DNA of 64,000 nt from a virus. Every line of letters starts with the position of its first letter. The stretch's first letter is position 1. The position numbers were made by a program, and so were the translations under genes. The stretch spans positions 2,258-66,257 of IMG/VR virus record IMGVR_UViG_3300045936_000225; one strand, given 5' to 3'. Under the pieces are notes generated by a model. That model saw only the letters and a program-made list of their open reading frames with translations, was not told where the DNA came from and searched no databases. Below are positions 2,102 to 63,753 of the stretch, piece after piece.

Positions 2102-2108
2102 CACACGC

Positions 2109-2137
2109 TTTACGGCAACAACCCCACGCGTTATAGT
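2109..2137 (+). promoter_or_regulatory. sigma70-like promoter: TTTACG - 17 nt - TATAGT, within the conserved motif GCTTTACGGCA
   Basis: Same 11-mer and -10 arrangement recur at 7644, 11918 and 59900 (- strand); CTTTAC variants at 24074 and 60033. Confidence 0.5.
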
Positions 2138-2850: not shown

Positions 2851-5508
2851 ATGCCCATCACGAGCCTTCCTGGCGCTCCTGACGACTCTGCCGAGGCAGA
2901 ATTGCCGGAGGCGTCTGTCGAGTCACTGGAACCGCCTCCAGAAGAGGTCGTGACTGACACCGACGATGGCGGCGCCATCATCACGACGGAAGACGATCCC
3001 ACCGGCGACATCTCCACGGATGACTGGTTCAAGAACCTCGCCGATGAGCTGCCAGCGGACAAGATTTCGCTGTTCACCTCCGAGCTCGTGGAGCTGATCG
3101 ATGCAGACAAAGAGTCTCGCAAAGAATTCGATGAGATGTACGCCGAGGGCATCAAGCGCACTGGTCTTGGCGGTGATGCTCCGGGTGGCGCCACTTTCCA
3201 AGGAGCCAGTCGCGTCGTCCATCCCATGCTTTCGAAGGCCGCTATTGACTACAACAGCCGCGCCATGGGTGAACTCTTCCCTGCAGGCGGCGAAATCGTC
3301 CGTGATCAAGTCCTCGGCCAATCGGATGACTACGACTTCAATCCGAAAGATGATACCCAGAAGGCGCTAGGCGAAGTCGCCAAACCGCAGCTGTCGTATG
3401 CTGAGCGCTGCGACAAGGCTGTCCGCATCAAGAATTTGATGAATTGGCAGTTGGTCCACCAGGTTCCGGAGTTCCGGCTGGAAATGGACAAGCTGCTGAC
3501 CCAGACGCCACTTTCCGGCAGTCAGTTCCTGTTCTTCTCGTGGGATGAGCGCAGAAAGCGCCCGACTTGCCGATACTGGCCGACAGACCATGTCTGGTTC
3601 GACTACGGCTCTCCGAGCTACAACATCTCCGAGCGCCTGACTCTCGCTGAAGAGATCACGCACGTCGAGTTCAAGCGTCGTGTGCGGCGAGGCGAATATT
3701 GGCTGCCGAATGGGCTCAACGAGCTTCCTGGCAGCCCGATGCCGAAGCTCGAGACGGAAGCCGACAAGGCGACTGACAAAGCGCAGGGTGTCAAGCCGAC
3801 CTGGAATATCAAGGCCGGCTTCCATTTGATGGCTCGCTGCTACTGCTATCTCGATCTGGAAGACGCATACGAGGAAGCTCCGTATTGCGTCATCCTGGAC
3901 CTTGCCAACGATCGCATCGTCAGCGTCGTTCGCAACTGGGAGCAGGAAGACGAGGCGAAGGAACCGCTCACCTGGGCGAATGAAGTGCCCTTCTTGCCGT
4001 GGCGCGGCGCTCTCACCCTCGGCCTGATCCAGTTCATCGGTTCACTGGCTGGCGCATCGACCGGCGCTGCACGAGCCCTGCTGGACGCTGCGCACATCAA
4101 CAACTTCCCGGCGATCCTCAAGCTGAAGGGCGCCAATTTCGTCGGCCAGACGCAGACTGCTCAGGCCACAGGCATCACGGAAGTCGAAGGCGGAGTCGCC
4201 AACGACGCCGACATCCGCAAGATGATGATGCCGATTCCGTACAATCCTCCGTCGCCGGTCCTGTACCAGCTGCTTGGCTGGGCGAGCGACGAGGGGTCCA
4301 GCTTCGTTCAGATGGCCATCAAGGACCTTGCTGAAGGCAAGCGTGACATGCCAGTTGGCACCACGCTGGCTCTGATCGAGCAGGGTCTGAAGACCATGTC
4401 TGGCATCCACTCGCGGCTCCACAACGCGATGGCTCAGATCCTGAAGACCGTCTACCGGCTCAACAGGATGTACATCACGGACGAGGAGATTCGCAACGAA
4501 GCTGGCGTTCTGCTAGCTCGCCGTAGCGATTTCCAGGGTCCGATGGATGTGGTGCCGATCAGCGATCCGGAAGTGTTCTCGGATGCTCAGCGCTTTGCGC
4601 AGCTCCAGATCATCGCCGATCGCTCGGCCGCGATGCCGCAGCTGTACAAGCTGCGCAACGTCGAGGAGATGATTCTGTCGCGATCTCGCATTCCGAATGC
4701 GAAGTCGCTGCTGATCGATCCTCCGGAGCCGACCGAACAGAATGCCGTCACGGAGAATCTCCGGATGGCGATGGGCCAGCCTTGCGCTGTGTTCCCGCAT
4801 CAGGATCACTTGGCCCACTTGCAGGTGCTGCTCGACTTCACGATCGAGCCGATGCTTGGTGCCAATCCGCTGATCGCGCCGAAGTTCCTACCGCATGCCA
4901 TGCAGCACATCGCCGATCATATCGTGATGTGGTATGCGAATCAATTTGATTCCGTCATGACGCCTGCGATGCGCGACGAGTTCGGCGACGTGAACGTCCA
5001 AGAGGCATGGGACGAGAAGGACGAGGAAGTTCGCTCGGAGCTGGACAAGCTGTACGCAACTGCCTCACCGAAGATCACTGCGATGATGGCAGACAAGTTC
5101 TCCAAGCTGCCTCCGATCATCCAGAAGGCTCAGGCGCTGATGCAGCAGTACATGCCGCCGCAGCCGATGGACCCGTCGCAGGCCACGATCCAGGCGAAGC
5201 AGATGGACGTTCAGGCGAAGAAGGCTGCCGACGACGTCAAGTTGCAGACCACGCAGCTCCACGAAGTCGCAGAAAGCGAGCGCAATACCCAGGACAACCA
5301 GACCAAGCTGGAGATCGCTGGCTGGGAAGTTCAGCTCGCTCAGCAACAGAACGAGCAGAATGCTGTGGACGCCGAGAACGACCGCGTGGCCGACGAGAAC
5401 AATTCCGAGCGCGATCGGCAGGCAAATGCCGAAAACGCAGACAAAGACCGAAAGGCCAGTGGCGGCGGCGGGCCGAACATGACGAATGGAGACCTCTCCG
5501 GAGGCTAA
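2851..5508 (+). CDS. portal protein (large, with coiled-coil C-terminus)
   Basis: 885 aa, directly after the terminase. Acidic N-terminus and a Q/E/N-rich coiled-coil C-terminus. The call rests on position and size. Confidence 0.6.
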   Translation: MPITSLPGAPDDSAEAELPEASVESLEPPPEEVVTDTDDGGAIITTEDDPTGDISTDDWFKNLADELPADKISLFTSELVELIDADKESRKEFDEMYAEGIKRTGLGGDAPGGATFQGASRVVHPMLSKAAIDYNSRAMGELFPAGGEIVRDQVLGQSDDYDFNPKDDTQKALGEVAKPQLSYAERCDKAVRIKNLMNWQLVHQVPEFRLEMDKLLTQTPLSGSQFLFFSWDERRKRPTCRYWPTDHVWFDYGSPSYNISERLTLAEEITHVEFKRRVRRGEYWLPNGLNELPGSPMPKLETEADKATDKAQGVKPTWNIKAGFHLMARCYCYLDLEDAYEEAPYCVILDLANDRIVSVVRNWEQEDEAKEPLTWANEVPFLPWRGALTLGLIQFIGSLAGASTGAARALLDAAHINNFPAILKLKGANFVGQTQTAQATGITEVEGGVANDADIRKMMMPIPYNPPSPVLYQLLGWASDEGSSFVQMAIKDLAEGKRDMPVGTTLALIEQGLKTMSGIHSRLHNAMAQILKTVYRLNRMYITDEEIRNEAGVLLARRSDFQGPMDVVPISDPEVFSDAQRFAQLQIIADRSAAMPQLYKLRNVEEMILSRSRIPNAKSLLIDPPEPTEQNAVTENLRMAMGQPCAVFPHQDHLAHLQVLLDFTIEPMLGANPLIAPKFLPHAMQHIADHIVMWYANQFDSVMTPAMRDEFGDVNVQEAWDEKDEEVRSELDKLYATASPKITAMMADKFSKLPPIIQKAQALMQQYMPPQPMDPSQATIQAKQMDVQAKKAADDVKLQTTQLHEVAESERNTQDNQTKLEIAGWEVQLAQQQNEQNAVDAENDRVADENNSERDRQANAENADKDRKASGGGGPNMTNGDLSGG

Positions 5509-5896: not shown

Positions 5897-6135
5897 GCCG
5901 GGCAGTTGACGTAGAAGCCCTGATTCGGCGAATTGATCAGGAGATCACGTCCTACAGCGTTGAGGCGCTGGCGACTCAGCCCAATACAGGCAATGAAGCA
6001 TATACGCTCGGACGCCACTCTGGAGTGACGCTTGGGCTTCGAATGACCAAAGACATCATCGCAAGGATGATAAAGGAATCGGACGATGAGCGGCGACCTC
6101 AAATCGGTGTCCCCACGCAAGGCCGTGCCTATTGA
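5893..6135 (+). CDS. small hypothetical protein. The 3' end overlaps the next gene by 50 nt, so the stop is doubtful.
   Basis: GTGA start/stop overlap with the previous gene. Confidence 0.25.
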   Translation: MSRAVDVEALIRRIDQEITSYSVEALATQPNTGNEAYTLGRHSGVTLGLRMTKDIIARMIKESDDERRPQIGVPTQGRAY

Positions 6136-6547
6136 AAGCGGATATGTCAACCTGGAAGAAGCCTTCCCGGTCGTCAATCCGAATTTCATCCCGGTCGGCA
6201 ACAAGATTCTTCTGCAGATTCGCACCCCGAAGAAGAAGTCTTCCGGCGGCATCCTGCTAGTAGAAGAGACTCGCGAAGTCGACAAGTGGCAGTCTCAGGT
6301 CGCCAAGGTGATCACCCTCGGTCCTGTGGCGTTCTGCAATCGTAATTCGCTGGAGAAGTGGCCGGAAGGCGAATGGTGCAATCCTGGTCAGTTCGTTCGG
6401 GTGCCGCTGTATGGCGGCGACCGCTGGTATCAGAAGATCAATCCGGATGACGTGAACTCAGACGAGGCAATCTTCCTGGTCATCAAGGACACCGACGTCA
6501 TCGGGGTTGTGCCAGATCCGCTGAGTGTCATCGCATTCATCAACTAG
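6086..6547 (+). CDS. groS: GroES/Cpn10-like co-chaperonin (T4 gp31-like role?)
   Basis: Mobile-loop motif KKKSSGGILLVEE aligns with GroES KSAGGIVL. N-terminal PVGNKILLQI and C-terminal IFLVIKDTDVIGVV match the GroES beta-barrel pattern. An insertion is present. AAGGAA Shine-Dalgarno. Confidence 0.6.
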   Translation: MSGDLKSVSPRKAVPIESGYVNLEEAFPVVNPNFIPVGNKILLQIRTPKKKSSGGILLVEETREVDKWQSQVAKVITLGPVAFCNRNSLEKWPEGEWCNPGQFVRVPLYGGDRWYQKINPDDVNSDEAIFLVIKDTDVIGVVPDPLSVIAFIN

Positions 6548-6566: not shown

Positions 6567-7628
6567 GTGAGCAAAGAAACGGAAGAGAAGAAAGAGGAAG
6601 AGCTGGTTGTCGTCGAGGACGCGCCTGCTGCCGAAGACAAGAAGCCGGAGGAAGAGAAGAAGCCTGCGGCCGAAGCGTCGGATGATGACGAGGACGATGA
6701 CGAGGAAGACGAGAAGGAGCCTGCCGAAGAAGGCGACGCTCGTGCGGCTACCGACGCTGACGCTGACAACGAGGCTGGTCGCCAGAAGAAGCGCAAGACC
6801 TCGAAGGAGCGTCGCGCTCGTCAGAGGGCATACGCGGAGCGTCGTGAACGCGAGCTGAACTACTACGCCAGTCGCAATGCGGTTCTGGAGAAGCAGGTCG
6901 CCGAGATCGACAAGCGCCAGCGCCGTTCGGAAGGCATCACCATCGGCCAGGCCATCAGCCACGTCGACGCGCAGATCAAAGAAGCCGAGCGGCTGGAAGC
7001 CGAGGCGATCGAAGCGAAGAAAGGGCCAGAAGCCGTCGAGGCTCGCAGCATCCGAGAATCTCTGATGGGCAAGCGCGAGCGCCTGGTCGCTGCCGCCGAA
7101 CGTGCCAAGCAGCCGCCGCCAGACACCAGCTCGACGACTCCGCCTCCGGAAATGCAGGCGGCCATGGACTGGATCGGCCGCAACAAGACGTGGTACGATC
7201 CGAAGGGTCGTGACGAGGACTCGGCACTCGCTCAGACGATCGAAGATCGGATGACTCGCGAAGGCAAGTTCAATCCTGCCACGGACGAGTTCTGGGAAGA
7301 GCTTGACAGACGCTTGCAGGCGCGTGGCGTGGGTAAGCGTACCAAAGCCGGCGTGCAAGACGCTGACGATGATGACGCCGACGATGAAGTCGAGGTCGAG
7401 GCCGAGGAAAAGCCTGCAGCGAAGGCTGCAGCCAAGCCTCCTGCGAAGAAGCCGTCTGGCGGTCCTCGGGTCACTGTGAACGGCAGTCAGCGCAGCCTCA
7501 AGGCGAACGAGGTCTATGTCAGCCCTGAGCGCAAGGCTGCGATGATCGAGGCCGGCGTCTGGGATGACCCTGTGTCGCGACAGCGCGTCCTTCGCAACTA
7601 CCAGGAATACGATCGAAACCACAAGTAA
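6567..7628 (+). CDS. scaffolding protein (acidic, coiled-coil)
   Basis: AGGAG Shine-Dalgarno 6 nt upstream of the GTG. D/E/K-rich N-terminus, coiled-coil middle, and a position between portal and capsid genes. Confidence 0.55.
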   Translation: MSKETEEKKEEELVVVEDAPAAEDKKPEEEKKPAAEASDDDEDDDEEDEKEPAEEGDARAATDADADNEAGRQKKRKTSKERRARQRAYAERRERELNYYASRNAVLEKQVAEIDKRQRRSEGITIGQAISHVDAQIKEAERLEAEAIEAKKGPEAVEARSIRESLMGKRERLVAAAERAKQPPPDTSSTTPPPEMQAAMDWIGRNKTWYDPKGRDEDSALAQTIEDRMTREGKFNPATDEFWEELDRRLQARGVGKRTKAGVQDADDDDADDEVEVEAEEKPAAKAAAKPPAKKPSGGPRVTVNGSQRSLKANEVYVSPERKAAMIEAGVWDDPVSRQRVLRNYQEYDRNHK

Positions 7629-7643
7629 GCGATCACAAGTCCT

Positions 7644-7671
7644 TTACGGCACCGCTGCGCTACTATATACT
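7644..7671 (+). promoter_or_regulatory. promoter copy B: GCTTTACGGCA ... TATACT
   Basis: cctttacggcaccgctgcgctactatatact, followed by a AAGGAA Shine-Dalgarno and ATG 7698. Confidence 0.5.
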
Positions 7672-8926: not shown

Positions 8927-9841
8927 ATGGCAGTCCCAATGCAATCAGCTGCTTTCCGCAGCATCGTCGAGCCCATCCTCAACCACGTCTATGACGGCAT
9001 CATGGACCAGCGCAAGGACGAATACTTGCAGGTCTTCGAGGTCGTCAAGGGCACGGAACGGATGTACCACGAGGTGCCCGTGCTGGCCGGTTTCGGCCTG
9101 GCTCCGGAGATCCCGGATGGCCGGCCCGTGACCTACCAGCAGAGTGGCACGCTGTTCATCAAGCGTTACGTCTACAAGGTCTACGGCACCGCTTTCGCGC
9201 TGACCAAGATCCTGGTGCAGGATGGCGATCACATCAAGATCGGCTCCATCTTCGCGAAGCAGGGCGCGCAGGCGATGATCGAGACCATGGAGACCAACGC
9301 TGCGAACATCATCAACCGCGCGTACAATGCATCGTACGTCGGTGGTGACAACGTGGCACTCGGCAGCGCCTCGCACCCGATCGTGGGTGGCACCTTCAGC
9401 AACATCCTGGCGACGCCTGCGGCCCTGTCGCAGACCAGCCTGGAACAGCTCCTGACGCAGATCACCAAGGCCGTGGACAACAACGGCAAGAAGATCCGCC
9501 TGGAGAAGAAGAAGCTGGTGGTGTCGGCGGAGAACGAGTACCAGGCCGAAGTGATCACCAAGTCCGTGCTGCGCTCGGGTGTCGCCAACAACGACATCAA
9601 CCCGATCAAGAGCAAGGGCTTGCTGGCCGGCGGCGTGGCGCTCATGACCCGCATGACGAGCGCGACCCAGTGGGGCGTGCTGACGAATGCCCAGGAAGGC
9701 ATGCAGTACGTGTGGCGCCAGAAGCAGGAGAAGCGTATGGAGGGTGACTTCGAAACCAACTCCATGCGTTACGCCTTCGACGAACGCTACGACTTCGGCT
9801 GGGTCAACCCGCGCGCGTTCTTCAGCACGGCTGGCCTGTAG
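8927..9841 (+). CDS. major capsid protein
   Basis: 304 aa with a strong AAGGGAGG Shine-Dalgarno. It follows the decoration gene and is followed by a strong hairpin terminator. Confidence 0.6.
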   Translation: MAVPMQSAAFRSIVEPILNHVYDGIMDQRKDEYLQVFEVVKGTERMYHEVPVLAGFGLAPEIPDGRPVTYQQSGTLFIKRYVYKVYGTAFALTKILVQDGDHIKIGSIFAKQGAQAMIETMETNAANIINRAYNASYVGGDNVALGSASHPIVGGTFSNILATPAALSQTSLEQLLTQITKAVDNNGKKIRLEKKKLVVSAENEYQAEVITKSVLRSGVANNDINPIKSKGLLAGGVALMTRMTSATQWGVLTNAQEGMQYVWRQKQEKRMEGDFETNSMRYAFDERYDFGWVNPRAFFSTAGL

Positions 9842-9878
9842 TCAACCTCGACCCGTCGAGGCCTGATTACCTGACGGT

Positions 9879-9910
9879 GATCCTCCGGGGGTGCTGCCCT
9901 CCGGAGGATC
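9879..9910 (+). terminator. stem-loop after the capsid gene (10-13 bp GC-rich stem)
   Basis: gatcctccgggg-gtgctg-ccctccggaggatc, followed by agattct. The hairpin reads on both strands. Confidence 0.55.
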
Positions 9911-9984
9911 AGATTCTAGCAGCAAACTCGCCCCAGATGAAGAATGGGGCATCAACGGCCCGATGAAAAGGGCAGGAGTCTGAA

Positions 9985-11139: not shown

Positions 11140-11910
11140 ATGAAAGGTTTTCAGAAGGGTTGCAACTTCAACACTTCGGCAAACGGCCAATTCCGAGCCG
11201 AGCCAGTAAAGCTGGCAACTGGCGGTCTTGCAGGACTGAAGGCTTCTTCGCCGAAACCGTCTCCTCGTGGCATCGCTGGCGCGATTGCTTCGAAGCTTGG
11301 CTCGAGCATGAAACCGGCTGCGCCCAAAAGCGGAATGCTCGGCAAAATCGGATCGAGCCTGAAGAGCGCGGTACAGAAGGTTGCACCGCCTTCCGCGCCC
11401 GTTACCCCAGCCGCCGCGCCTGCAAGGGTTTCGCCGCGACCAGCGCCGAGAGCCTTCAAGGAAGGAGGCGCTGTCATGGCCGGTCAAGGTTCTGGCGTTC
11501 ACCGCGCGCAGATACAGGAACACGGCTATGCTGAGGGCGGCAAAGTCGAGACGAAGGAGCAGTTCAAGGTGAAGCTGATGAAGAAGCAGGATCCGCCTGC
11601 GCCGAAGCAGAAGCTTGCCCGTGCTGCCGATCGTCAGGACTTCGCCGACCTGAACGGCGGCGACGCCCAGCGCGAGACCATCCGAGTCGGTAATACGAAA
11701 GCCTCGTATAAGCAGGCGAAGGACTTCCAGGCCGAGGCGCGAATCGACGAAGGCAAGGGTGGCATCGAGACGTGGAATCAGCGACAGGGCAAGGTCGAGA
11801 ATTACGCCAAGGGCGGCTCGGTCGCAGGCTGTCACACGATCGTGGAACGCCAGATGAAGAAGCACGTCGCAACTCCGGCGCCGAAGGGTCACAAGGGTCT
11901 TAAGGCATAG
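11140..11910 (+). CDS. K/A/P-rich basic protein (possible internal DNA-associated virion protein)
   Basis: GAGGGAGAGG Shine-Dalgarno. Low-complexity basic sequence. Confidence 0.45.
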   Translation: MKGFQKGCNFNTSANGQFRAEPVKLATGGLAGLKASSPKPSPRGIAGAIASKLGSSMKPAAPKSGMLGKIGSSLKSAVQKVAPPSAPVTPAAAPARVSPRPAPRAFKEGGAVMAGQGSGVHRAQIQEHGYAEGGKVETKEQFKVKLMKKQDPPAPKQKLARAADRQDFADLNGGDAQRETIRVGNTKASYKQAKDFQAEARIDEGKGGIETWNQRQGKVENYAKGGSVAGCHTIVERQMKKHVATPAPKGHKGLKA

Positions 11911-11917
11911 ACTGCGC

Positions 11918-11946
11918 TTTACGGCACCCGTGCCTTAGCGTATAAT
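11918..11946 (+). promoter_or_regulatory. promoter copy C: GCTTTACGGCA - 17 nt - TATAAT
   Basis: Exact 11-mer with a 17-nt spacer and perfect -10. It lies upstream of gene 12006. Confidence 0.55.
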
Positions 11947-24069: not shown

Positions 24070-24073
24070 GACT

Positions 24074-24101
24074 TTACTCCATGGGCGTCTTAAGCTATAA
24101 T
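24074..24101 (+). promoter_or_regulatory. promoter F: CTTTAC - 16 nt - TATAAT, ending 6 nt before ATG 24108 (leaderless transcript likely)
   Basis: gactttactccatgggcgtcttaagctataatagcagcATG. Confidence 0.45.
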
Positions 24102-32515: not shown

Positions 32516-32875
32516 CTATTCCGACTTGTCGGCTCGCGTCTGTGCAGCCTCGTTGCTGTACCGGAGACCTTCGTACCGCTTGCTGAGCTTCGCGATATTG
32601 GCGTTGAGCGTTTCCTCCCTGCTGATGCCAAGGCCCTGCCGCAGACCTTCCATGTAGAACTCCAGGTCGCCGAGTTCCTCGACGATGTTGTCCCGGTCCA
32701 CTTCCTTGTTGTAGATCGCGACCTTCTTGACCGCATCCAGGAGCTCGCCTGCCTCGCCGCTGACACCCACGGCCATATGCAGCAGGTGAGTGCTCTGCGG
32801 CGTCAGGTCAGCGATGATCGCGGCGCCGGACTTGGCGAGCACGCTCACCATCTCTGCGTGATTGATCTGGCTCAT
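32516..32875 (-). CDS. MazG-like nucleotide pyrophosphohydrolase
   Basis: EAGELLDAVKK ... EELGDLEFY motifs. Confidence 0.6.
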   Translation of the reverse strand: MSQINHAEMVSVLAKSGAAIIADLTPQSTHLLHMAVGVSGEAGELLDAVKKVAIYNKEVDRDNIVEELGDLEFYMEGLRQGLGISREETLNANIAKLSKRYEGLRYSNEAAQTRADKSE

Positions 32876-34576: not shown

Positions 34577-34911
34577 CAGATCATCCTCGCGAAATCTGGT
34601 TTCGGTGCATCTTCACCCTTGGTGATTCGATGCTCCTTGATCCTGTCACACTTTTTCGCGAGCGTATTCATGAACATCTTGTACATCTTCAGGTCAACCA
34701 ACCTGGCTGATGCTTCGCGAAATCCTTGGCGGCCAGACTCAATGCAGCCTAGTTGAAGCGCATTCTTCAGAGTTCGATTCTCCTGCATCAGCGCTTCTTT
34801 AAGAGCTTGATCGCCCTGCACTTTCTCAATGATATGCGTTCCCACCGCTCGATGGGTGTGCATAATCATGTTGTAGACGGCTGTATCGCCAGCCCAATAG
34901 ATCTCGATCAC
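34576..34911 (-). CDS. hypothetical protein
   Basis: ATGA coupling. Confidence 0.4.
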   Translation of the reverse strand: MIEIYWAGDTAVYNMIMHTHRAVGTHIIEKVQGDQALKEALMQENRTLKNALQLGCIESGRQGFREASARLVDLKMYKMFMNTLAKKCDRIKEHRITKGEDAPKPDFARMI

Positions 34912-35258
34912 AGCATCTCCGGAAACCCGTTCTTCACGGATACCTCGTTGAACTTCTCGCGCACTGCTTCGGCGAGATTGATCCCCTCCCGCTGCGCGAT
35001 CAGGTCGAGATAGAGGTAGACGTCAGCAATCTCCTTGCGGAGTTCGACGCGCAGCTCTTCCTCGGAGACTGTGTTGCCGACAAGACCATCGCGCACGCGA
35101 TTGAGCTTCTTGACGACGTTGCAGAGCTCGCCGGCCTCGCCTGCCAATGCAACTGCCCAGTCCGACAGGGACCATTCAACGAGCCCATCCGGATGCCAGC
35201 GAAGACAACGAGCCAGATTGACGCGACTGATGTTTGCGATTGAGTCGTTGTTCACCAC
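34908..35258 (-). CDS. MazG-like NTP pyrophosphohydrolase (second copy)
   Basis: EAGELCNVVKK ... EIADVYLYL motifs. Confidence 0.55.
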   Translation of the reverse strand: MVNNDSIANISRVNLARCLRWHPDGLVEWSLSDWAVALAGEAGELCNVVKKLNRVRDGLVGNTVSEEELRVELRKEIADVYLYLDLIAQREGINLAEAVREKFNEVSVKNGFPEML

Positions 35259-36657: not shown

Positions 36658-36721
36658 TTCGCCCACCAAATTCCGCCATATCTTGAGTATACTCGTCAGG
36701 CGGCGCAAAGTAAAGGTTCTG

Positions 36722-37134: not shown

Positions 37135-38628
37135 TCAGTTGTCGCCGAGCACAGTTGCGGCCGTCTGACCCTTGTGCTCAAGAGCGAATGCGATATCCTC
37201 GTCGACAGTATCAACGGCGCAGAGCATGATGTAGGTGCACTTGTCACCTTGCTGCCCGATGCGATGGATTCGATCTTGACTCTGAGCCAAGTTGCCCCAG
37301 TTGTAAGACATGCTGGCATATATCATGATATCCGCTGCCGTCAAAGTGATGCCGATGCCGCCAGAGCCTGGCTGACCGACGAAGCCGCGCTTTGCTCCGC
37401 TCTGGAACTCGTCGATCGCCTTCTCGCGATTGGTTTGCGAGACGCCACCGTGATACTGCACATGGGAGATATTCATCTTCTCCAACAACGCGCAGATCGC
37501 CCTGATCTCCTCGCGGAAGTGGGCGAATATGATGAACGGCTTGTCGTTGGGGATGTCGTCGATCACCTCTTCCAACAACTCTAGCCTGGGATTGCCGTCA
37601 ATCAGGTACTGCGCCAGCGTCGTCTCATCTGGCTGCTTCATCAAGACGAAGCCTGACGTCACCTGCTGCAGCTTGACCTGCGCCGTTAGCGAGGTTGCCT
37701 CCAGAAGATCGTCGCCAACCTCCAGGTAGTGCTCTTCCTTGATCTGATTGTAGGCCATCCGCTGGCCGGGAACGAGGTCGAAATATCGCCTCTCGAACAC
37801 CTTCTCCGGCAAGTCTAGGCAGTCCTTCTTCAACACTCGGAAGGTGTGCGGTGCCACGCGATCGCGGAGCTCCTCCAGATTGCGCCACTTAGGACGCCCG
37901 TTGAAGTCCTTCTCGACGATCTGCGGCCCTTTCCAAGTGCCCTTTTGCTGTGCAGCTTTGATCGCCGGATTCTTGGCTGCACGGGCAGCGATATGGCGCA
38001 TGATGCCTGAGTGATCAGGCGCGATATGCGCGTAACGTGCGACGAACGCGCGGTGCGTTTGACCCCAGAATCCAGGCTTCAGAAATTCGAACTGGCTGAA
38101 GAGATCGGGAGGGCTGTTTGTCAGTGGAGTACCGCTCATGATTCGTCGAGCGGTGCTCGTCGATGCCAGTTGCAGAACCCGCTTAGTGACGACCGCAGTC
38201 GGCGTCTTGATGCGCTGTGATTCATCAACAACCAGCATGACCTTGCGGCCCTTCATGAACTTCATCGCAACGTCGTAGCCTGCCTTATGAGCAAGCGCGT
38301 CGATGTTGATGGCCAAGATCTTCAGGCTCTTCGCTCCGTCCCGGAGTAGGTCCTCTAGAGGCTTGACTGACTTGCCGCTGTTGTATGCCCAAGCCCTGAA
38401 TGGAGGGCTGAGATGCGTCGGGATCTCTCGCCGCACGAAATTTGTGTGGACGCCTTTCGGCGCAATGATCAGTAGCGCGTCGATCTTGCCGGCGTGGAAG
38501 CAGCGCTCTGCATCCGCAAGAATCATCCAACTCTTGCCGGTTCCCTGCTCGGCGAATATGGCAGCCCAGCGTCTGCCGTCAAGGAAGGTCAGGGCCTCAC
38601 CCTGATGAACCATAGGTTGCGTCTTCAT
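37135..38628 (-). CDS. SNF2/SF2 DNA helicase
   Basis: Walker A EQGTGKS, DExQ box VVDESQRIK, motif VI QDRIHRIGQ. Confidence 0.85.
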   Translation of the reverse strand: MKTQPMVHQGEALTFLDGRRWAAIFAEQGTGKSWMILADAERCFHAGKIDALLIIAPKGVHTNFVRREIPTHLSPPFRAWAYNSGKSVKPLEDLLRDGAKSLKILAINIDALAHKAGYDVAMKFMKGRKVMLVVDESQRIKTPTAVVTKRVLQLASTSTARRIMSGTPLTNSPPDLFSQFEFLKPGFWGQTHRAFVARYAHIAPDHSGIMRHIAARAAKNPAIKAAQQKGTWKGPQIVEKDFNGRPKWRNLEELRDRVAPHTFRVLKKDCLDLPEKVFERRYFDLVPGQRMAYNQIKEEHYLEVGDDLLEATSLTAQVKLQQVTSGFVLMKQPDETTLAQYLIDGNPRLELLEEVIDDIPNDKPFIIFAHFREEIRAICALLEKMNISHVQYHGGVSQTNREKAIDEFQSGAKRGFVGQPGSGGIGITLTAADIMIYASMSYNWGNLAQSQDRIHRIGQQGDKCTYIMLCAVDTVDEDIAFALEHKGQTAATVLGDN

Positions 38629-39149
38629 GGTGAACCTTTCCTAAGCGCCGGCCCGCTAGGCCACGCCGGAGGCTGAGTTTTCTGACTAAATACGCGCTGC
38701 CACAGCTCCGGGAGGCCCGCTACGGCGTATCCCGCCTTCAACTCCTTCCTAGTCATCCCCCGGGAAGGCGTGACAACGGCTTGCAGCGTAGGCGCGGCGG
38801 CTACCGCCGGCCCGCGCGCGTGCAAGACCTTCGGAATATCCTTGCCTGGAATGAGATACCATTGACCTAGCGTGTCCTTCGCTACGACATAGCTGCGGCC
38901 TCCATGAATGGCTATGCTCATGTGCCACTTAGGTTGATCCTTCTCGAAGGTGTCGTTCTTGATGATCGGTGTAGTGGCCATAACCGGCACGATCAGGTGC
39001 TTCGTCTCGAACCAGACGGTCTGTCCTTGGCTGAGAAGGTGTAGATCGGCAGTTCCGCTGCCGAGGCCATTCTCGATGCGCTCCATACGAATGCCATACG
39101 GCTTCGTGCGTTTGAGCTCATCGTAGACTTTCTGCTCAGGCTTGCGCAT
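38625..39149 (-). CDS. VRR-NUC (PD-(D/E)xK) nuclease
   Basis: GTADLHLL ... TVWFETKH motif. ATGA-coupled to the helicase. Confidence 0.5.
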   Translation of the reverse strand: MRKPEQKVYDELKRTKPYGIRMERIENGLGSGTADLHLLSQGQTVWFETKHLIVPVMATTPIIKNDTFEKDQPKWHMSIAIHGGRSYVVAKDTLGQWYLIPGKDIPKVLHARGPAVAAAPTLQAVVTPSRGMTRKELKAGYAVAGLPELWQRVFSQKTQPPAWPSGPALRKGSP

Positions 39150-41965
39150 CAGAACTTGAATCCGTCGTTGAGCTCTGGACGCGTCAGGCAGCGGAGCCTG
39201 CTGATGCTAATCATTGAGAAGTTCTGGAGATACTTGCCACGAATTAGCAGCCAGTCCTTGCCGTCCAGGAGGTTATCTGCAGCATACTTGCCCGCACCCT
39301 CCCAGTTATATGTCTTGATGCGCGCAAGAATCGGTTTGCTGACGCTGTCGTCAACTACGAACATGTCGAGGAACAGAGACTGGGTTGATCCGTCGCGGCC
39401 CATGTACGCCTTGTTGCCGCGACGCTGGAAGCGGACCGCTTCATTCTCGTCACGACGCTCGCGGCGGATCAGTTTGGCGATAACGACAGCCTCCTCTCCG
39501 TCCTTCAGCTTGCCGATCAGTTTGACCTTGCCACGGATGCCGTGCAGCTCAGGATTGGCATAGACAGCGCCCCACAACTTCTTGCCTTCCTCCAGATCTC
39601 GAAACCGGATCTCTGAGGACAGCAGCTTCTTGCGATCCACGTCGGTCAGTTGACCAGCTTTGCGTCGCGCGAGGTACTGGCCTGCTTTTGCAGGTCCGAT
39701 TCCCTTGATGTTCTGGTAGCCGCCATACAGCACGCCATCACGAACGCTCCATCCTGCATCGCTCTTGTCGGGATCGAAGGCCACGTAACTGATGCCTTCG
39801 TCACGAAGCTCTCGAAGCATCTCGATAACTTGCTCGTCATCCTTGGCGTTGCTAAGCAGTGCCGCTGCATACTGGAGTGGCCAACGTGCCTTCACGTATG
39901 CAGTCCAGTAAGTGACGATGCCGTAACTGACAGCATGGGCGACGTTGAAGAGCCAGGAGCCGGCGAACACCATCTGCCGCCAGATTTCGCGCGCAGCGTC
40001 CTCGCCGATCACGTCGTTGGCGCCTGCCGTGAACTTGTCACGCATCGAGTCGAAGTACTCCTGACCCTTGCGGCCAGACATCGACTTTCTGATCTCAGCA
40101 ACGTCCTTCCATGACATCTTGCCGATCTCTCGGCAGATGAACATTACCTGTTCTTGCCAGACGATAACGCCAAACGTGTCACCCGTATATCGACGAACTT
40201 CCTCTGGGACTCCGGACTCCCAGCTTTCTTGACCACCCATCCGCTTGATATAGTTGTTGGTGCCGCCGGAGGCCAAGGCACCTGGACGAGCAAGGCCGCC
40301 GATATGGGCGATCTGCATGAAACTGGTAACGGGGATCTGCTTCGCAACACGTCGAGCAGCAGCTCCTTCAAGCTGGAAGAGTCCAGAGAACTTGCCGCTA
40401 TTGATGACATCGAATGCCTCCTGGGAGTCCAGCTTGAGGTCGTAGAACTCCTGGTTGCTCATGACGCCACACTCCTCCAGCACTCCGAGAGTGCGTAGTC
40501 CGAGTGCGTCGATCTTGAGCAACTCCAGGTACTTGACGTCCTCCTTGGTCAAGCAGGCGACGCCTTCTGAGTTCACCGTGCAGTAGTGATGGATCGGCTC
40601 GTCGTTAACGAGCACTCCTGCAGCGTGGACCGACGTCGTGAACGGCGTCTGCTCAGCGCGGCCGACGACGGCCATTTCTGGGAATTCGCTCGCGAACTTC
40701 TTGCCCTCTGCCGTCTGGATCATCGTGTCTTCCAGAGCGAATCCGTATCGCGAGTCGCCGGAGGAGTACTCGATCAGTTGGTTGAGGAGATTGAAGGTCT
40801 TGTACTTCGGAACTCCCATCTTCATGCCGCATGTCGTGAGCACACTTCGCGGCTGCATCGTCACGACGTTGCCGAGTCGAGCGACGTGCTCCTCGCCGTA
40901 CTTCTCGCGAAGGTACTCGAATGCCATTTCGCGTCTGACGTCAGAGAAGTCAGAGTCGACGTCAGGCGGGTCGGAGCGCGTCACATCGATGAAGCGCTCG
41001 AACAGAAGGTCATGCTGGAGCGGGTCGATCTCCGTGATCTGCAGCACGTAGCAAACCAGTGATCCGCTCGACGATCCGCGGCCAGGACCGACGAGCATCT
41101 TCGTCTTCGCATACCGCATCAGGTCGCCGACGATGAGAAAGTAGCTGTCGAAGCCCTTCTCGCCGATCATCTTGCGCTCGTATTGCAGACGCTTCTCGTG
41201 CGCATCGGTCCAGACGATGTGGCCGCGACCGATGCGGTATTGCTTGCCCGCCTCGATTTCGGCGTCTAGGTCGCCGGCAAACTCTGGCAGCTTGCCGCGC
41301 GGCAGCTTCAATCCCTTGACCCTCTCCGCAGCCTCGTAGGTGCCCTTGATGGCAGCGCGCAGGATGTCAGTCGGCAGGTGGTTCATAACCACCAGAATCT
41401 CTTGCTCGCTCAGTAGCCATTGAGGCGTGGTGCGCTTTTGGTCAACTACGGCGAGGTGGAAGTCCCAGTCCTCCCTTCTCGCGAAGAAGTTGTCGCTGGT
41501 CAGCACGAGAGGCTTGCCAGTCTTCTTGTACAGCTCCAGCTGCTGCCTCGCCGCGACCAAACTTCTCGGATTGAAGTCGATGTAGTCGAATGCTGACGGG
41601 TCATCGAGGTTCGGGCCAGAGAAGACGACCGCTGAATCACGCAGTTTGCGCAAATCGCTTTGGTGAATATCAACAGGATGCGCGCTCGTCCAGGTGTAGA
41701 AACCCTTGAGGTCAGTAGCGAGAGCCCAGACACCTTGAGCGACACCGTCTACCATCGTGACTGGGAATTCCATGCCAAAGGCAGGGATCACCGACTTGCC
41801 CTTGAGCTCCTTCTCCCAAGTGACATGACCCCATGTTCCCGTATCGACGAGACCTGCAACCGGCGTCTGCAGTTCCTCCAGCCGCTCCACGAGATCAGAA
41901 ATGTGGCCGGTTGCTTTCTTGATGCTGAAATTGCTGCGCACCCGCAGCTGAGGGAATCCTGTCAC
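39149..41965 (-). CDS. dnaE: DNA polymerase III alpha-like (DnaE family) catalytic subunit
   Basis: N-terminal PHP domain. Palm and fingers motifs (LLKIDALGLRTL, GLFQLEG, WQEQVMFI). 938 aa. Confidence 0.85.
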   Translation of the reverse strand: MTGFPQLRVRSNFSIKKATGHISDLVERLEELQTPVAGLVDTGTWGHVTWEKELKGKSVIPAFGMEFPVTMVDGVAQGVWALATDLKGFYTWTSAHPVDIHQSDLRKLRDSAVVFSGPNLDDPSAFDYIDFNPRSLVAARQQLELYKKTGKPLVLTSDNFFARREDWDFHLAVVDQKRTTPQWLLSEQEILVVMNHLPTDILRAAIKGTYEAAERVKGLKLPRGKLPEFAGDLDAEIEAGKQYRIGRGHIVWTDAHEKRLQYERKMIGEKGFDSYFLIVGDLMRYAKTKMLVGPGRGSSSGSLVCYVLQITEIDPLQHDLLFERFIDVTRSDPPDVDSDFSDVRREMAFEYLREKYGEEHVARLGNVVTMQPRSVLTTCGMKMGVPKYKTFNLLNQLIEYSSGDSRYGFALEDTMIQTAEGKKFASEFPEMAVVGRAEQTPFTTSVHAAGVLVNDEPIHHYCTVNSEGVACLTKEDVKYLELLKIDALGLRTLGVLEECGVMSNQEFYDLKLDSQEAFDVINSGKFSGLFQLEGAAARRVAKQIPVTSFMQIAHIGGLARPGALASGGTNNYIKRMGGQESWESGVPEEVRRYTGDTFGVIVWQEQVMFICREIGKMSWKDVAEIRKSMSGRKGQEYFDSMRDKFTAGANDVIGEDAAREIWRQMVFAGSWLFNVAHAVSYGIVTYWTAYVKARWPLQYAAALLSNAKDDEQVIEMLRELRDEGISYVAFDPDKSDAGWSVRDGVLYGGYQNIKGIGPAKAGQYLARRKAGQLTDVDRKKLLSSEIRFRDLEEGKKLWGAVYANPELHGIRGKVKLIGKLKDGEEAVVIAKLIRRERRDENEAVRFQRRGNKAYMGRDGSTQSLFLDMFVVDDSVSKPILARIKTYNWEGAGKYAADNLLDGKDWLLIRGKYLQNFSMISISRLRCLTRPELNDGFKF

Positions 41966-42273
41966 TTTGGAATCTCCACGTGATGAACGTAATTGCGCAG
42001 GCGCTTGATCTTGCCTGTCACGTGCCTAGCGATCTCAGTATCAGACAGGAATGGACTCTTGACATTCTCTCTGAGCACGAGGAATGCGGCCGAAAGATCG
42101 CCGAGTTCCTTCGCCAGCGAGGTGATGTTCTTCTCCATCGACACCGGGTGATACGATCGAAGACCGTGCCTCTGGATCTTGGCGATTGCCTGGATGACCT
42201 CCGCGCACTCTTCCGCGACGATCACGAGGGCTTCCATCTCCGCTGGCGTCAGTTCGTTGAATTGTTCCATCAC
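41962..42273 (-). CDS. MazG-like or all-alpha NTP-PPase-like protein (third copy; tentative)
   Basis: EECAEVIQAIAKI ... ELGDL motifs. Confidence 0.4.
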   Translation of the reverse strand: MMEQFNELTPAEMEALVIVAEECAEVIQAIAKIQRHGLRSYHPVSMEKNITSLAKELGDLSAAFLVLRENVKSPFLSDTEIARHVTGKIKRLRNYVHHVEIPK

Positions 42274-42950
42274 GCCCTCGAAGTACGAACTTGAGTGGTG
42301 CCATCCACGACGCTCTTGTCGAAGCCGATCTTACGCGGCTCACCATACCCGGTTGGCCTGCAGAGTTCGGGCGGTCTAGTGCCATCAGGGATCAGTGACA
42401 CCAGCTTGTGGTGCTTCACGATCTCTGCGAGCGCCCTGACGTCGTCCATGCCACGGTGAGTCTGTTTGTATTCCTTGCCTGTGGTCGCCTTGTACAGCTC
42501 GATGAGCTTCATTCGGCGACCCCAGAGCGGGTCGAATTCCTGGACGGTACAGATGTTGTGGCGCGGCCACGGGAAGTCCTTGCAACCGCATCGCTCCAGC
42601 TCGCCGGCGAGCAATGCATGGTCGAAGGGAAGGTTGTGGCAGATCAGGCCGTCGGTGTCCTCGAAGAAAGCGATGATCTCGTCAAGGTGAGCTGCGAAAG
42701 CAGGCTTGCCGGCGAGATCGGCGTTCGTGATCCCGGTAATCCCGGTGATCTCAGGCGTGATCTGCTGTCCCGGATAGCACAGAAACTCCAACTCCGCGAG
42801 CTCGTTGCCGAACACGTCGACCTTCAAAGCCGCGAATTCAATGATGCGCGGCTGCAGGTCCTGCTTCGCATACGGATGCAGGGTCAGCCCTGTGGTTTCC
42901 GTGTCGAATATGATGGCCGTTTTGACGGCTGCGTCAACGATCGAATTCAT
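42270..42950 (-). CDS. dnaQ: DnaQ-like 3'-5' exonuclease (DEDDh)
   Basis: Exo I IIFDTETTGL, Exo II HNLPFDHALL, Exo III HRGMDDVRAL. ATGA overlap defines the start. Confidence 0.8.
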   Translation of the reverse strand: MNSIVDAAVKTAIIFDTETTGLTLHPYAKQDLQPRIIEFAALKVDVFGNELAELEFLCYPGQQITPEITGITGITNADLAGKPAFAAHLDEIIAFFEDTDGLICHNLPFDHALLAGELERCGCKDFPWPRHNICTVQEFDPLWGRRMKLIELYKATTGKEYKQTHRGMDDVRALAEIVKHHKLVSLIPDGTRPPELCRPTGYGEPRKIGFDKSVVDGTTQVRTSRA

Positions 42951-44653
42951 CGACGAATCCTCTTGCTGTGACGAGTCCACAAGACTGCTCCGTCCCAGAT
43001 ATGGTCGGCGCCCCATTCGTCTGCGCTGGCTAGATCTGGGAAGAATCCGCTTCCGTTTTTGTTGGCCGAGGTATTGCACAGGAGGCCTGGACCGCCGCTC
43101 GCAGCCGCATAACCTTGGAGGATCGAACGGACGATTGCACAGTCCGAAAATCCGACCGTCTGGATCCTGGCAGTATTGTCGATGTGCGTGATAGCAGGGA
43201 ATTTACCTGCGCATTCCGGCCTGATGACGTGGTCGAACAGCATGTATGGGTCCGGCGTCCCAGGATGGAAGAGAGCAGGTGCATCTTCTTCGAGGACAAT
43301 CGGCGCCACAGGTCTCCAGTGTTCACGGTTCTTGTCCATGTTGAGGGTGTTCTTGTTGGGGGACTCTGTAGCAGCCATCAGCAGGCTGCGATGACCGAGT
43401 GCACGCGGCCCGATCTCTGCCCGGCCATGAAGCACGCAAACGTAATCGTCCGGATGCTCCCAGAGCCAGCGCCCGAGTTCGTGCGGCTGCATCGGAGTCT
43501 TCGTAAACTTCGGATGCGCGCTGTACGGCATCTGGTCAACAACCAGCTGAGCAGGCGACATACGCGGCCCGCAGTACACGTCCCAGTCAAGCGCCGTCTT
43601 CTCGCCAGCAGCCCATCTGGCCGCAGCTGCTGCACCGATGGCGCTGCCCGAGTCATTCGGGCAAGGAGGAACCCAGACGTCGATGTCCATGCGCCGGATC
43701 TGGCTGTTCCACTTAATGTTCAAGGCCGAGCCGCCGACGAACACGAGGTTCATCGTTTTGCCATGTTTCTCCAGCCCTTCGACGATCTTGTCGCCCATCC
43801 ACTGATGGATGCTGCGAAGTAAATCTGCATCAGTGATGCTCTCTTCCGCTGTCGCGTAGAGAACGAGCTGCATGAAGGCATTCTCCGGCCTGCAGTCATT
43901 AAATGCGCTTTCCACTCGCTTGTCTGGATAGACTTCCGGTCTGCGCCCATCACTAAGGATGTGATGAGCGTTCTCGCAAGCCTGCAGGACTGCGTCAGAA
44001 ACCTTGCCGTGACCGATCCATGACATCAGCTTGCCTGGCCAGTCGCGACGACTGATCGACTTTGTGTAATCGCCGTGACGAAGGCGCTCCATGCCTGCTG
44101 TCTTGAAAGGTCCTGCATAGTATCCCATGATGCCATACAGCGTGCCGTACAGGTTGAAGAGGGCTTTGCCGCCGGTGATGCCTTTCTGAGGATCCACCTG
44201 ATAGAGCATCGGACGCGTTCCGCCGTCCCACATCAGGACGTCGCAGCGCTCTCCCGCGTATGGCGACATTAGGTACGCACCAAGTACGTGACCCGTGATA
44301 TGCGGCGTACTGCCAACGACCGTACCGAGATCTAGGCGCAGAGTCTCGCGCGCGAAGTTCGATAGCGTGACGAACTGGAATTCGATGTCTGGCCAGTAGC
44401 CTGCAACGTCCAGCTCGATTGGCCGGAAGAGCTTGCCGGCACGCCATCCGTCGATGCACAGAACGTCGCTGTTGTGGAACTCGAATCCCTCGCTGTCCAG
44501 CGCTTTGCGCACGGCAGAAAGCGATTCCGCCTCTGTGTACCGAGGATTGTTGCCGAATTTCTCCAATTCCAGGCTCCACTGGAGCTTGCCGGTTGCGTCG
44601 ATCATCGCCACTGCGGCATCATGCGTGAACTTCACGCCAACAAAACGAGTCAT
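42947..44653 (-). CDS. NodU/CmcH-family carbamoyltransferase
   Basis: N-terminal FTHDAAVAMID (HDxA motif of the Kae1-like domain), C-terminal HIDNTARIQTV (as in HVDGTARVQTV), ~570 aa. GAGGTG Shine-Dalgarno. Confidence 0.7.
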   Translation of the reverse strand: MTRFVGVKFTHDAAVAMIDATGKLQWSLELEKFGNNPRYTEAESLSAVRKALDSEGFEFHNSDVLCIDGWRAGKLFRPIELDVAGYWPDIEFQFVTLSNFARETLRLDLGTVVGSTPHITGHVLGAYLMSPYAGERCDVLMWDGGTRPMLYQVDPQKGITGGKALFNLYGTLYGIMGYYAGPFKTAGMERLRHGDYTKSISRRDWPGKLMSWIGHGKVSDAVLQACENAHHILSDGRRPEVYPDKRVESAFNDCRPENAFMQLVLYATAEESITDADLLRSIHQWMGDKIVEGLEKHGKTMNLVFVGGSALNIKWNSQIRRMDIDVWVPPCPNDSGSAIGAAAAARWAAGEKTALDWDVYCGPRMSPAQLVVDQMPYSAHPKFTKTPMQPHELGRWLWEHPDDYVCVLHGRAEIGPRALGHRSLLMAATESPNKNTLNMDKNREHWRPVAPIVLEEDAPALFHPGTPDPYMLFDHVIRPECAGKFPAITHIDNTARIQTVGFSDCAIVRSILQGYAAASGGPGLLCNTSANKNGSGFFPDLASADEWGADHIWDGAVLWTRHSKRIRR

Positions 44654-45728: not shown

Positions 45729-45750
45729 GGCCGGGAGCCCACTCCCGGCC
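45729..45750 (-). terminator. hairpin after the SSB gene (9-bp GC stem ggccgggag/ctcccggcc)
   Basis: Followed on the - strand by U-rich tcttcggagagataag. Confidence 0.5.
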
Positions 45751-45794
45751 CATCTGCTATTATAGCTCCGTCTTAGCGCACGCGCTACGGCGCA

Positions 45795-53458: not shown

Positions 53459-53477
53459 TCGTGAGCAGGAACTGCTA

Positions 53478-53738
53478 TTATAGCCTAGAACGGTCCTGAC
53501 GTAAAGCTTGCGTTATCGGCTTCACCCAGTACTGCCAGACACCCTTTCCCCACGCGGCAGCATACAGAACGTTCAAGAGCGTGATTCCCCATTGGCTGGC
53601 CGAGATCGATGCATAGAACCAGAAGGGCTGCCCGGCAATGCCGAACAGGCAAGCGTACTGGCGAATCCGCTCAGACTTCGCTTGCGTCAGGAAGATGGCA
53701 ACAACGCCAGTGAGTGCAATGCCGACCTGGTCAATCAT
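53478..53738 (-). CDS. small multi-TM membrane protein
   Basis: Three hydrophobic segments in 86 aa. Confidence 0.45.
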   Translation of the reverse strand: MIDQVGIALTGVVAIFLTQAKSERIRQYACLFGIAGQPFWFYASISASQWGITLLNVLYAAAWGKGVWQYWVKPITQALRQDRSRL

Positions 53739-55288: not shown

Positions 55289-55390
55289 GATCCTCATCCT
55301 TTGCCCGTTGGGGCGGTTGTAAATTCAAGCTCAGGCGTAGGATAGCCTATCCAAGCCCTTGCGTAAACAGGTTTTTGGCTTGCGCGCCCA

Positions 55391-59658: not shown

Positions 59659-59857
59659 TGCGTTAACCCTCCAAGGTGCAGAATAAATCTCAACGGCGTA
59701 GTATAGCTCGGCAAGGGCGCAAACGTAAAGGGCCTGCTTGGACGCCAGTAGGATATATTAGAGACGCTTGCACGAGCGTTAGGCGGCTACCGCCCACCCG
59801 CTACGCGTGCAAAGCATTCGCATCTTGGCGCCCGCCGGCCCGTGGGCGTAATAAGGA

Positions 59858-59900
59858 ACGCGCGCCCGCGCGTACTACTCTAATTTAGCGCTGCCGTAAA
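59858..59900 (-). promoter_or_regulatory. leftward copy of GCTTTACGGCA with weak -10 (TAGTAC) overlapping a GC palindrome ACGCGCG-cc-CGCGCGT
   Basis: Lies in the divergent 59.66-60.12 kb control region. Confidence 0.35.
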
Positions 59901-60032
59901 GCGTTTGTTGGACCGGCATATCGCCATCAACGACGACGGCAACACGGCGATCGATGCAATGCGCTGCTATAGGGTCGCTCCATGCTCGTGCGGCGTCGTA
60001 CGCTGCTGTGCGGCAAGGTGCTACAACCACCT

Positions 60033-60088
60033 TTACTTTTGGCGCGCGTGGCGTATACTAGGACGCAGGGTAGCACTCTTGCTACCCC
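60033..60088 (+). promoter_or_regulatory. rightward promoter (CTTTAC - 16 nt - TATACT) followed by inverted repeat GGGTAGC-actctt-GCTACCC
   Basis: Located 35 nt upstream of the AAGGAA Shine-Dalgarno and ATG 60124. Confidence 0.45.
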
Positions 60089-60339: not shown

Positions 60340-60347
60340 CAGCCACC

Positions 60348-63277: not shown

Positions 63278-63571
63278 TCAGTCAAAGCGAGGACGCATGT
63301 AGTCGCGTCCGTGAATCGCTAGTTGACCTTGAACATAATCTCGACGATCGTCGACCGTTAAGATGAGCTTGCCTCTCAATATGCCTAGATTGCATCTGCG
63401 ACATGCAGGAAATGTGATCGTAGATCGAGGTGCCCAATTCTTTGGAGGTACGTGATCTTTGGTCGTGGCAGGCTCATCGCAATAGCTGCATCGGGCGCAG
63501 TGCTTGGCTCGAAGGGATCGGATTGTCATGTTCATAGCGTCTATTATCGCTCTTATGGCAGCTGACGTCAA
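63278..63571 (-). CDS. HNH endonuclease
   Basis: HCARCSYCDEPATTKDHVPPK ... CRRCN (Cys4 + His HNH motif). Confidence 0.6.
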   Translation of the reverse strand: MTSAAIRAIIDAMNMTIRSLRAKHCARCSYCDEPATTKDHVPPKNWAPRSTITFPACRRCNLGILRGKLILTVDDRRDYVQGQLAIHGRDYMRPRFD

Positions 63572-63753
63572 GCCTGCCGCGCGCTGCCATGTTAAAGCAC
63601 CTTTGCTTCCGCATCATGTTAAATGGCAACCGAGCGCAGTTCTGCTGGCGTCGGTCGTATCTCGTTGATGTGACACTCGAAGCACACGCCCAGGATCGGA
63701 TTATCGCTTCTTGCACTAGGCAGCGCAGCGCTCAACCCTTCGTCGTTAGAGGA

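Follow-up and report, generated by a model that had tools for sequence, protein, structure and literature searches.

Short, nearly identical sequences recur upstream of genes in an uncultured tailed phage, raising the question of whether they are promoters and, if so, which polymerase reads them. The stretch of DNA analyzed here (64,000 nucleotides, hereafter the window) holds most of the phage genome, which belongs to a lineage of approximately 66 kb. The window begins inside a 568-aa gene upstream of TerL, and contig L042 of the same phage (1-2233) reaches 2,233 nt further upstream, so that the window is not the whole genome; this extension shows no overlap with the window's end. An identical DUF932 protein was also found, by protein search, on a 66,369-nt contig. 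Genes were called with a codon-usage caller, while neither tRNA genes nor Rfam families at gathering score were detected in the window. No near-identical DNA turned up when 12 kb were compared by megablast with 50,697 phage records, and the nearest isolates are the Caulobacter phages RW, RLK, KcrB and GB2A, with 50% TerL identity. TerL-based locus searches of IMG/VR and of GTDB genomes yielded no relatives, a metagenome scan gave one related locus (L047), and the sequences of the relatives were gathered by protein searches and contig look-ups. The gene layout is as follows.

41 to 31330, + strand: packaging and structural genes
521-2101, + strand: TerL
2527-2847, + strand: gp49_66-like gene
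2851-5508, + strand: portal
6086-6547, + strand: GroES-like gene
8927-9841, + strand: major capsid gene, identified via PF25209 hits in relatives
31.3 to 59.66 kb, - strand: replication and nucleotide-metabolism genes
39149-41965, - strand: DNA polymerase
48728-50275, - strand: primase
31.3 to 59.66 kb, - strand: also a RepB-primase domain, SNF2 helicase, SSB and ligase
31.3 to 59.66 kb, - strand: also a ThyX-like protein, carbamoyltransferase and three MazG-like proteins
60124 to 62671, + strand: short rightward gene block

The three MazG-like pyrophosphohydrolase genes, the Nol-like carbamoyltransferase gene and the ThyX-like gene are all located on the - strand (32516-32875, 34908-35258, 41962-42270, 42947-44770 and 46662-47378), a set that suggests modified nucleotide metabolism and possibly DNA base modification.

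An earlier note on this DNA had reported one 11-mer, exact at four places, as a repeated phage promoter motif. The repetition is real and three of the copies of GCTTTACGGCA are indeed exact (2107-2117 and 11916-11926 on the + strand, 59892-59902 on the - strand), whereas the copy at 7641 reads CCTTTACGGCA, with one mismatch. Positions 2108, 11911 and 59900 had been assigned to sites that do exist, 1-5 nt away, and the CTTTAC variants placed at 24074 and 60033 are genuine, at 24072 and 60031. However, the inventory was incomplete, since it lacked 53506, 59730, 36715 and the variant 63572(-). The 10-mer CTTTACGGCA has four exact copies against 0.02 expected from dinucleotide shuffles, and the bipartite pattern CTTTAC-N17-19-TATANT is matched eight times (0.02 expected; 0/100 shuffles reached eight), on the + strand at 2108, 7642, 11917, 24072 and 60031 and on the - strand at 59730, 53506 and 36715. 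The ninth site is the CTTGAC-N18-GATAAT variant at 63572(-). A PWM scan returned ten matches of at least 14 bits, namely the eight training sites, 63572(-) and one marginal match (14.2 bits) inside gene 37135-38628, with a mean of 0.13 matches in random sequences at the same threshold. In generic sigma-70 scans this promoter family headed the ranking in each segment, with hexamers scoring 9-10/12, the remaining matches occurring in chance numbers. Across IMG/VR, GCTTTACGGCA-N14-TATANT was found at 41 loci with one match each, about the estimated chance for 16 specified bases. The predicted promoters are listed below.

2107..2137, + strand: structural-block promoter 1, GCTTTACGGCA-N14-TATAGT
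7641..7671, + strand: structural-block promoter 2, CCTTTACGGCA-N14-TATACT
11916..11946, + strand: structural-block promoter 3, GCTTTACGGCA-N14-TATAAT
24072..24101, + strand: structural-block promoter 4, CTTTACTCCA-N14-TATAAT
60031..60059, + strand: rightward promoter P_R, CTTTAC-TTTTGGCGCGCGTGGCG-TATACT
59700..59730, - strand: leftward promoter P_L, CTTTACGTTTGCGCCC...TATACT
53477..53506, - strand: replication-module promoter, CTTTACGTCAG...TATAATAGCAG
36686..36715, - strand: promoter CTTTACTTTGCGCC...TATACT
63543..63572, - strand: variant CTTGACGTCA-N14-GATAAT, also read GCTTGACGTCA-N14-GATAAT
55339..55368, - strand: weak variant GTTTACG-N17-TATCCT, upstream of a 157-aa gene (54815-55288)

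The geometry of the nine sites is that of sigma-70 promoters. An invariant C directly precedes the -35 hexamer, which is TTTACG or TTTACT at eight sites (4/6 positions in common with TTGACA) and TTGACG at 63571, while the -10 hexamer is TATAGT, TATACT, TATAAT or GATAAT, always with A in the second and T in the sixth position. A spacer of 17 nt separates the hexamers at seven sites; the other two have 18 nt (59729) and 16 nt (60032), and all nine lie within 17 +/- 1 nt. All nine are co-oriented with a start codon that follows the -10 at a distance of 6-65 nt, and a Shine-Dalgarno sequence comes after most of the sites. The intergenic placement claimed for every copy applies to all sites but one: 53506(-) overlaps the 3' end of gene 53478-53738 by its last codons. 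Sites 2108, 7642 and 11917 begin about 6-14 nt past the preceding stop codon, and no terminator-like site was detected between that codon and the promoter.

Could the motif belong to an RNA polymerase or sigma factor encoded by the phage, or be a chance repeat? The strict use of TTTAC instead of TTGAC might reflect a specificity other than that of the host. However, each site consists of two blocks with a spacer of variable length, not a contiguous block of ~20 bp as for T7-type polymerases; neither Pfam scans of ~70 proteins nor PHROGs scans of 20 revealed an RNA polymerase or sigma domain; and outside the structural block the only open reading frame of RNA-polymerase size is the DNA polymerase (39149-41965). 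A T7-type promoter was thus rejected on the bipartite architecture of the sites and the lack of a detected polymerase gene, and a chance repeat on the shuffles, not one of the 100 matching the observed counts. The probability that we assign to these readings together is close to nil.

We consider it probable that the motif represents about nine promoters for the host holoenzyme with its primary (sigma-70-type) factor, heading phage transcription units. CTTTAC would then cover the -35 region, with the hexamer TTTAC(G/T) after the invariant C and the -10 TATAnT 16-18 nt downstream, and host RNA polymerase carrying the primary sigma would read the early, replication and structural transcription units. 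The earlier note had proposed sigma70-type promoters as well, or else a site for a phage-encoded factor; the first suggestion is now backed by the hexamers and their spacing, over-representation, co-orientation and the conservation of both blocks. From the sequence we infer host-holoenzyme binding, the transcript start points and the timing of each class. What speaks against a host sigma factor is that the -35 is TTTAC, and not TTGAC, at 8/9 window sites and at all sites of the relatives, which would be unusual if selection were simply for the strongest sigma-70 promoter. In E. coli, lac-type promoters have the -35 sequence TTTACA. A literature search for CTTTAC phage promoters gave nothing relevant.

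The gene order downstream of the sites is in keeping with such transcription units. Four internal promoters (2108, 7642, 11917 and 24072) would serve the structural block, and the first three would most likely supplement read-through transcription of the portal, capsid, tail and internal-protein modules. As had been noted before, these three lie within the block; they stand ahead of a hypothetical gene with gp49_66 and the portal, of the head module and of a 350-aa structural gene, respectively. Promoter 2107..2137 begins 6 nt past the TerL stop codon (2099-2101) and precedes a 114-aa gene (2186-2530), gp49_66 (2527-2847) and the portal (2851-5508). The second, 7641..7671, starts 13 nt past the stop codon of gene 6567-7628 and is followed by a 188-aa gene (ATG 7698), a 194-aa gene and the major capsid gene (8927-9841), while 11916..11946, which starts 6 nt past the stop of gene 11140-11910, leads into the 350-aa gene (ATG 12006) and a 1020-aa gene. 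Downstream of 24072 are a 140-aa gene and then genes of 435, 1038, 237 and 556 aa.

On the - strand, 53506, 36715 and the weak site 55368 would drive replication and nucleotide-metabolism genes. Downstream of 53506(-) we found a DUF7307 gene (ATG 53425), a Pam3 gp34-like gene, the RepB-primase and the primase, and 36715(-) heads a block that starts with a 129-aa Cys-rich gene (ATG 36657), continues as the ligase/MazG block and ends with the ligase and a Band 7 (SPFH-domain) gene. P_L and P_R form a divergent pair in a 466-bp control region (59.66-60.12 kb) and would be its two outward promoters, P_L preceding a 50-aa gene (ATG 59658) and the leftward small-gene block, P_R a 71-aa gene (60124-60339) and the DUF932 gene (60348-61205). 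The motif supplies a ready map of transcription units for an uncultured phage lineage with no close relative in phage databases: a divergent early control region, replication-module promoters and, within the structural block, four internal promoters.

Several features of the predicted 5' ends should also be mentioned. The ATG at 24108 lies 6 nt past the -10 of promoter 24072, and the 140-aa gene is probably leaderless. At the variant 63572(-) the ATG (63535) lies 7 nt past the -10, and the gene product is small and weakly HNH-like. With L047 4020 included, the start codons at these three places lie 6-9 nt past the -10, a distance that would imply leaderless or near-leaderless mRNAs for the 140-aa gene, the HNH-like gene and the L047 gp49_66. 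The predicted first bases of the P_R transcript form a stem-loop, GGGTAGC-ACTCTT-GCTACCC (window 60068-60087), the stem of which is kept in L053 (GGTGGCA...TGCTACC) and L055 (GGTAGCA...TGCTACT) with an altered loop; the structure may stabilise the 5' end or act as an operator.

The motif was subsequently sought in relatives, as the earlier note had proposed, and was found in some of them. The comparisons covered 2108, 7642, 11917, 53506, P_L, P_R and the weak site 55368(-). The closest relative, L051/L053, is a 64,732-nt contig with a 92% identical capsid and ~78% nucleotide identity over alignable DNA. In L051, the orthologs of 2108, 7642 and 11917 are located at 2789, 8713 and 13376, where CTTTACGGCA is combined with TATAGTAC, TATACTCA or TATAATCC at three syntenic positions. 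Over these three sites the blocks are identical in 54/54 positions and the spacers in only 25/42 (Fisher p = 8e-8). L047, with 86% TerL identity, has CCTTTACGGCA-N14-TATAGTAC at 3980, directly after TerL, and its spacer matches in 6/14 positions. The ortholog of 53506(-) is found at L053 3491, CTTTACGTCAG...TATAATAGCAG, with both blocks identical. P_L is kept in L053 at 9393 and, as ATTTAC, in L055, which comes from the same metagenome as L047; P_R is kept in L055 at 2986, and in L053 its -10 is retained and its -35 lost. The orthologous place of the weak site 55368(-) in L053 (4124-) has TAGCGT-N16-TATACT instead.

Both blocks are under purifying selection: constant blocks beside diverged spacers indicate that promoter function is what is being selected. 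Judged by this comparison the elements are functional, with selection acting on both hexamer regions and sparing the intervening DNA. A sister lineage (L046/L048/L058; capsid identity 71-75%) has CTTTAC promoters with TAGGAT or TAAA(A/C)T at P_R and at the three corresponding syntenic places, the counterparts of 11917 being at 12772 in L046 and 14357 in L058. In contrast, the motif is absent from L043, L044, L059 and Caulobacter phage RW, a group that includes relatives whose TerL is 62-65% identical. RW, the nearest isolate (50% TerL identity), has no repeated promoter motif of a comparable kind, and its published description does not discuss promoters. The absence from RW and from relatives at 62-65% TerL identity indicates that the motif is specific to the lineage or host and not a family trait.

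One exact copy of the 11-mer does not behave like the others.

59858..59902, - strand: orphan copy, composed of GCTTTACGGCA, TAGTAC, the palindrome ACGCGCGGGCGCGCGT and, last, a T-rich tail

All copies had been described as paired with a TATAnT hexamer, and the other sites are; here, at 59901(-), TAGTAC stands at the right distance, with 3/6 matches to a TATAnT-type hexamer and without the final T. The palindrome ACGCGCGGGCGCGCGT and the T-rich tail look like a terminator, and a structured small RNA is not indicated, the fold being no better than shuffles (z = -0.30). The orphan copy lies within a ~190-nt segment (window ~59835-60000) that is inverted in L053, where it carries CTTTACTTTCAGG and TATACG plus a 16-bp GC palindrome, and absent in L055. 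The segment has the behavior of a small regulatory cassette that is mobile or can be inverted. By analogy, the orphan copy resembles a PeSL, the promoter/stem-loop cassette of T4-like phages (PMC2839356, PMC4122927), more than a working promoter.

It could be argued that all copies are chiefly homology patches for recombination and module shuffling, kept uniform by gene conversion. The gene after the post-TerL promoter does vary (the window has a 114-aa gene there and L051 its 98-aa homolog, L047 has none and L048 has other small genes), the orphan at 59901(-) joins a promoter-like box to a stem-loop within the inverted or absent segment, and two L051 sites have 27-nt identical promoter flanks. 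However, a stem-loop adjoins the orphan copy only, and the common sequence, 10-11 nt plus 6-8 nt, is so short that it offers poor homology for recombination. Furthermore, the syntenic positions are stable in two lineages, and spacers that diverge around fixed hexamer blocks point to selection on promoter function. We therefore hold this explanation to be very improbable and retain host sigma-70-type promoters as the preferred reading.

A further feature is the sequence directly downstream of the -35. At about -29 to -26, GGCA occurs in four window copies, three in L051 and one in L047, and it is found at the three structural-block promoters 2108, 7642 and 11917. Sites 53506 and 63572 have the extension GTCA(G), and P_L, P_R and 36715 have TTTG(C)GCGC. 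Sigma-70 is not known to contact these GGCA/GTCA/TTTG positions. The GGCA extension is likewise under selection, and it may mark a class-specific regulator; together with its class-specific alternatives, it offers a handle for finding a phage transcription regulator and is the sole part of the finding that might lead to something new.

It is conceivable, though in our view rather unlikely, that the sites also need a class-specific activator, repressor or sigma-remodelling protein encoded by the phage, which sets temporal classes; such a factor would supplement the host-polymerase model and not replace it. It would read GGCA with a GCAC-NN-GTGC-like dyad at structural sites, GTCAG at replication sites and TTTG(C)GCGC at the early pair. 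The extension varies by module, and L051/L053 show the same partition (GGCA three times, GTCAG and TTTTGCGCCC). GGCA is constant where spacers diverge, 5/7 structural-block sites of the window, L051 and L047 read GGCA(A/C)NCGTGC, a short dyad as read by eye, and the sister lineage has its own common extension after CTTTAC, TCTTCA or TTCTCA. On the other hand, no DNA-binding or sigma-related domains were found in ~70 proteins, and the -35 and -10 are already good, which gives the sites no activator-dependent look. In addition, structural-block site 24072 has no GGCA and site 2108 no dyad, the 27 nt of identical flanks at L051 2789 and 13376 could stem from gene conversion, and in L058 early and late sites have the same extension. 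The phage encodes ~30 small proteins without a family match, which leave room for a novel regulator or sigma-binding protein.

A narrower version, to which we attach slightly less weight again, holds that the structural-block sites form a regulon in which CTTTACGGCA and the dyad (GCAC-NN-GTGC, in the upstream spacer half) are read by a phage regulator or sigma-remodeller setting late timing. The T that replaces G in the third -35 position throughout the lineage would belong to this specificity or would reflect recognition of modified thymidine, the latter suggested by the ThyX-like, carbamoyltransferase and MazG-like genes of the phage.

The window contains other elements outside the promoter family. 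A second promoter-like class combines a strong -10, TATAATAG(C/A)AG, with TAGCG(C/G) replacing TTTAC at the -35.

52437-52465, - strand: second promoter-like class
45759-45787, - strand: second promoter-like class
48410-48417, - strand: second promoter-like class, at 48417 the -10 only

Members of this class precede the Pam3-gp34-like gene and the gene that follows SSB. In L053, TAGCG(C/T)-N16-17-TATACT occurs at 2741(-) and at 4124(-), the latter being orthologous to window 55368. ATAATAG heptamers point along the direction of transcription in 6/6 cases in the window. Downstream of SSB, directly past a TATAATAGCAG box, lies a 9-bp GC stem, GGCCGGGAG-TGGG-CTCCCGGCC (window 45729-45750, - strand), which may be the SSB terminator or the 5' hairpin of the next transcript.

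A three-hairpin element follows the major capsid gene in the intergenic region (window 9842-9984), with the loops CCUGAUUACC, GAUGAAAAC and GAUGAAAA, and was found in the following relatives.

L051 10916-11058: three-hairpin element
L043 17593-17701: three-hairpin element
L044 19422-19529: three-hairpin element
L046 11098-11207: three-hairpin element
L058 10916-11028: three-hairpin element
L059 10916-11026: three-hairpin element

The element is kept even in relatives without the promoter motif. Compensatory changes occur in 11/22 pairs, 88.7% of the cells are paired against 74% in shuffles (0/500 shuffles as high) and slid controls collapse, while no Rfam match was obtained. It may be a terminator, an attenuator or a protein-binding RNA, and its novelty may exceed that of the promoters. 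Finally, nine TAACCCTGT iterons (six exact, one inverted) are found at window 62755-63087, in noncoding DNA of ~600 nt that is AT-rich in part and separates the rightward early genes from the packaging genes; L055 has similar AACCCTGT repeats. The cluster probably serves as an origin of replication or as a site recognized for packaging.

How do these promoters compare with known systems? In T4 middle promoters, the MotA box ...TGCTTtA has its centre at -30 and stands 11-13 nt ahead of the -10. The window sites share the letters GCTTTA and a sigma-70-type -10, but their GCTTTA ends 19 nt before the -10, as opposed to 11-13 nt for the MotA box, and the element occupies the canonical -35. A MotA middle promoter was ruled out on this spacing, and no MotA/AsiA match was obtained in Pfam/PHROG scans. 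PeSL cassettes combine an early promoter with a neighboring stem-loop terminator, flank variable genes and coincide with the breakpoints of indels. The likeness to them consists in short, repeated, promoter-bearing intergenic units, with variable genes beside the post-TerL copy, and in the orphan copy (59858-59902), which unites a promoter-like box and a stem-loop. Unlike PeSLs, the canonical copies have no stem-loop and stand at stable syntenic positions before core genes.

The layout of lambda-type PL and PR is one of divergent host-polymerase promoters in an early control region. The two divergent sigma-70-type promoters between the leftward and rightward blocks (59700-59730 and 60031-60059) resemble it. 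Unlike the lambda-type layout, no repressor, Cro-like or integrase gene was identified in this phage, and there are several internal structural-block promoters instead of a single late promoter with antitermination.

Among bacterial promoters, the alphaproteobacterial sigma-70 consensus of Sinorhizobium meliloti is CTTGAC-N17-CTATAT (PMC2873474), and the consensus for Caulobacter RpoD is TTGaCgS / GCtANAWC (PMC8144410). The phage promoters share with the rhizobial consensus the leading C before the -35, hexamers 16-18 nt apart and a TATAnT -10, and differ from it in the T for G at the third -35 position (8/9 sites); the -35 fits the Caulobacter RpoD consensus, but the -10 does not. They further depart from sigma-70 promoters in the extra conserved GGCA, GTCA or TTTG just past the -35. 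The signal is of a familiar type and leaves the current picture of phage transcription unchanged, as a lineage-specific version of host-type promoters, and its consensus, C-TTTAC-N17-TATAnT, which resembles the alphaproteobacterial type, provides a clue to the primary sigma of the host.
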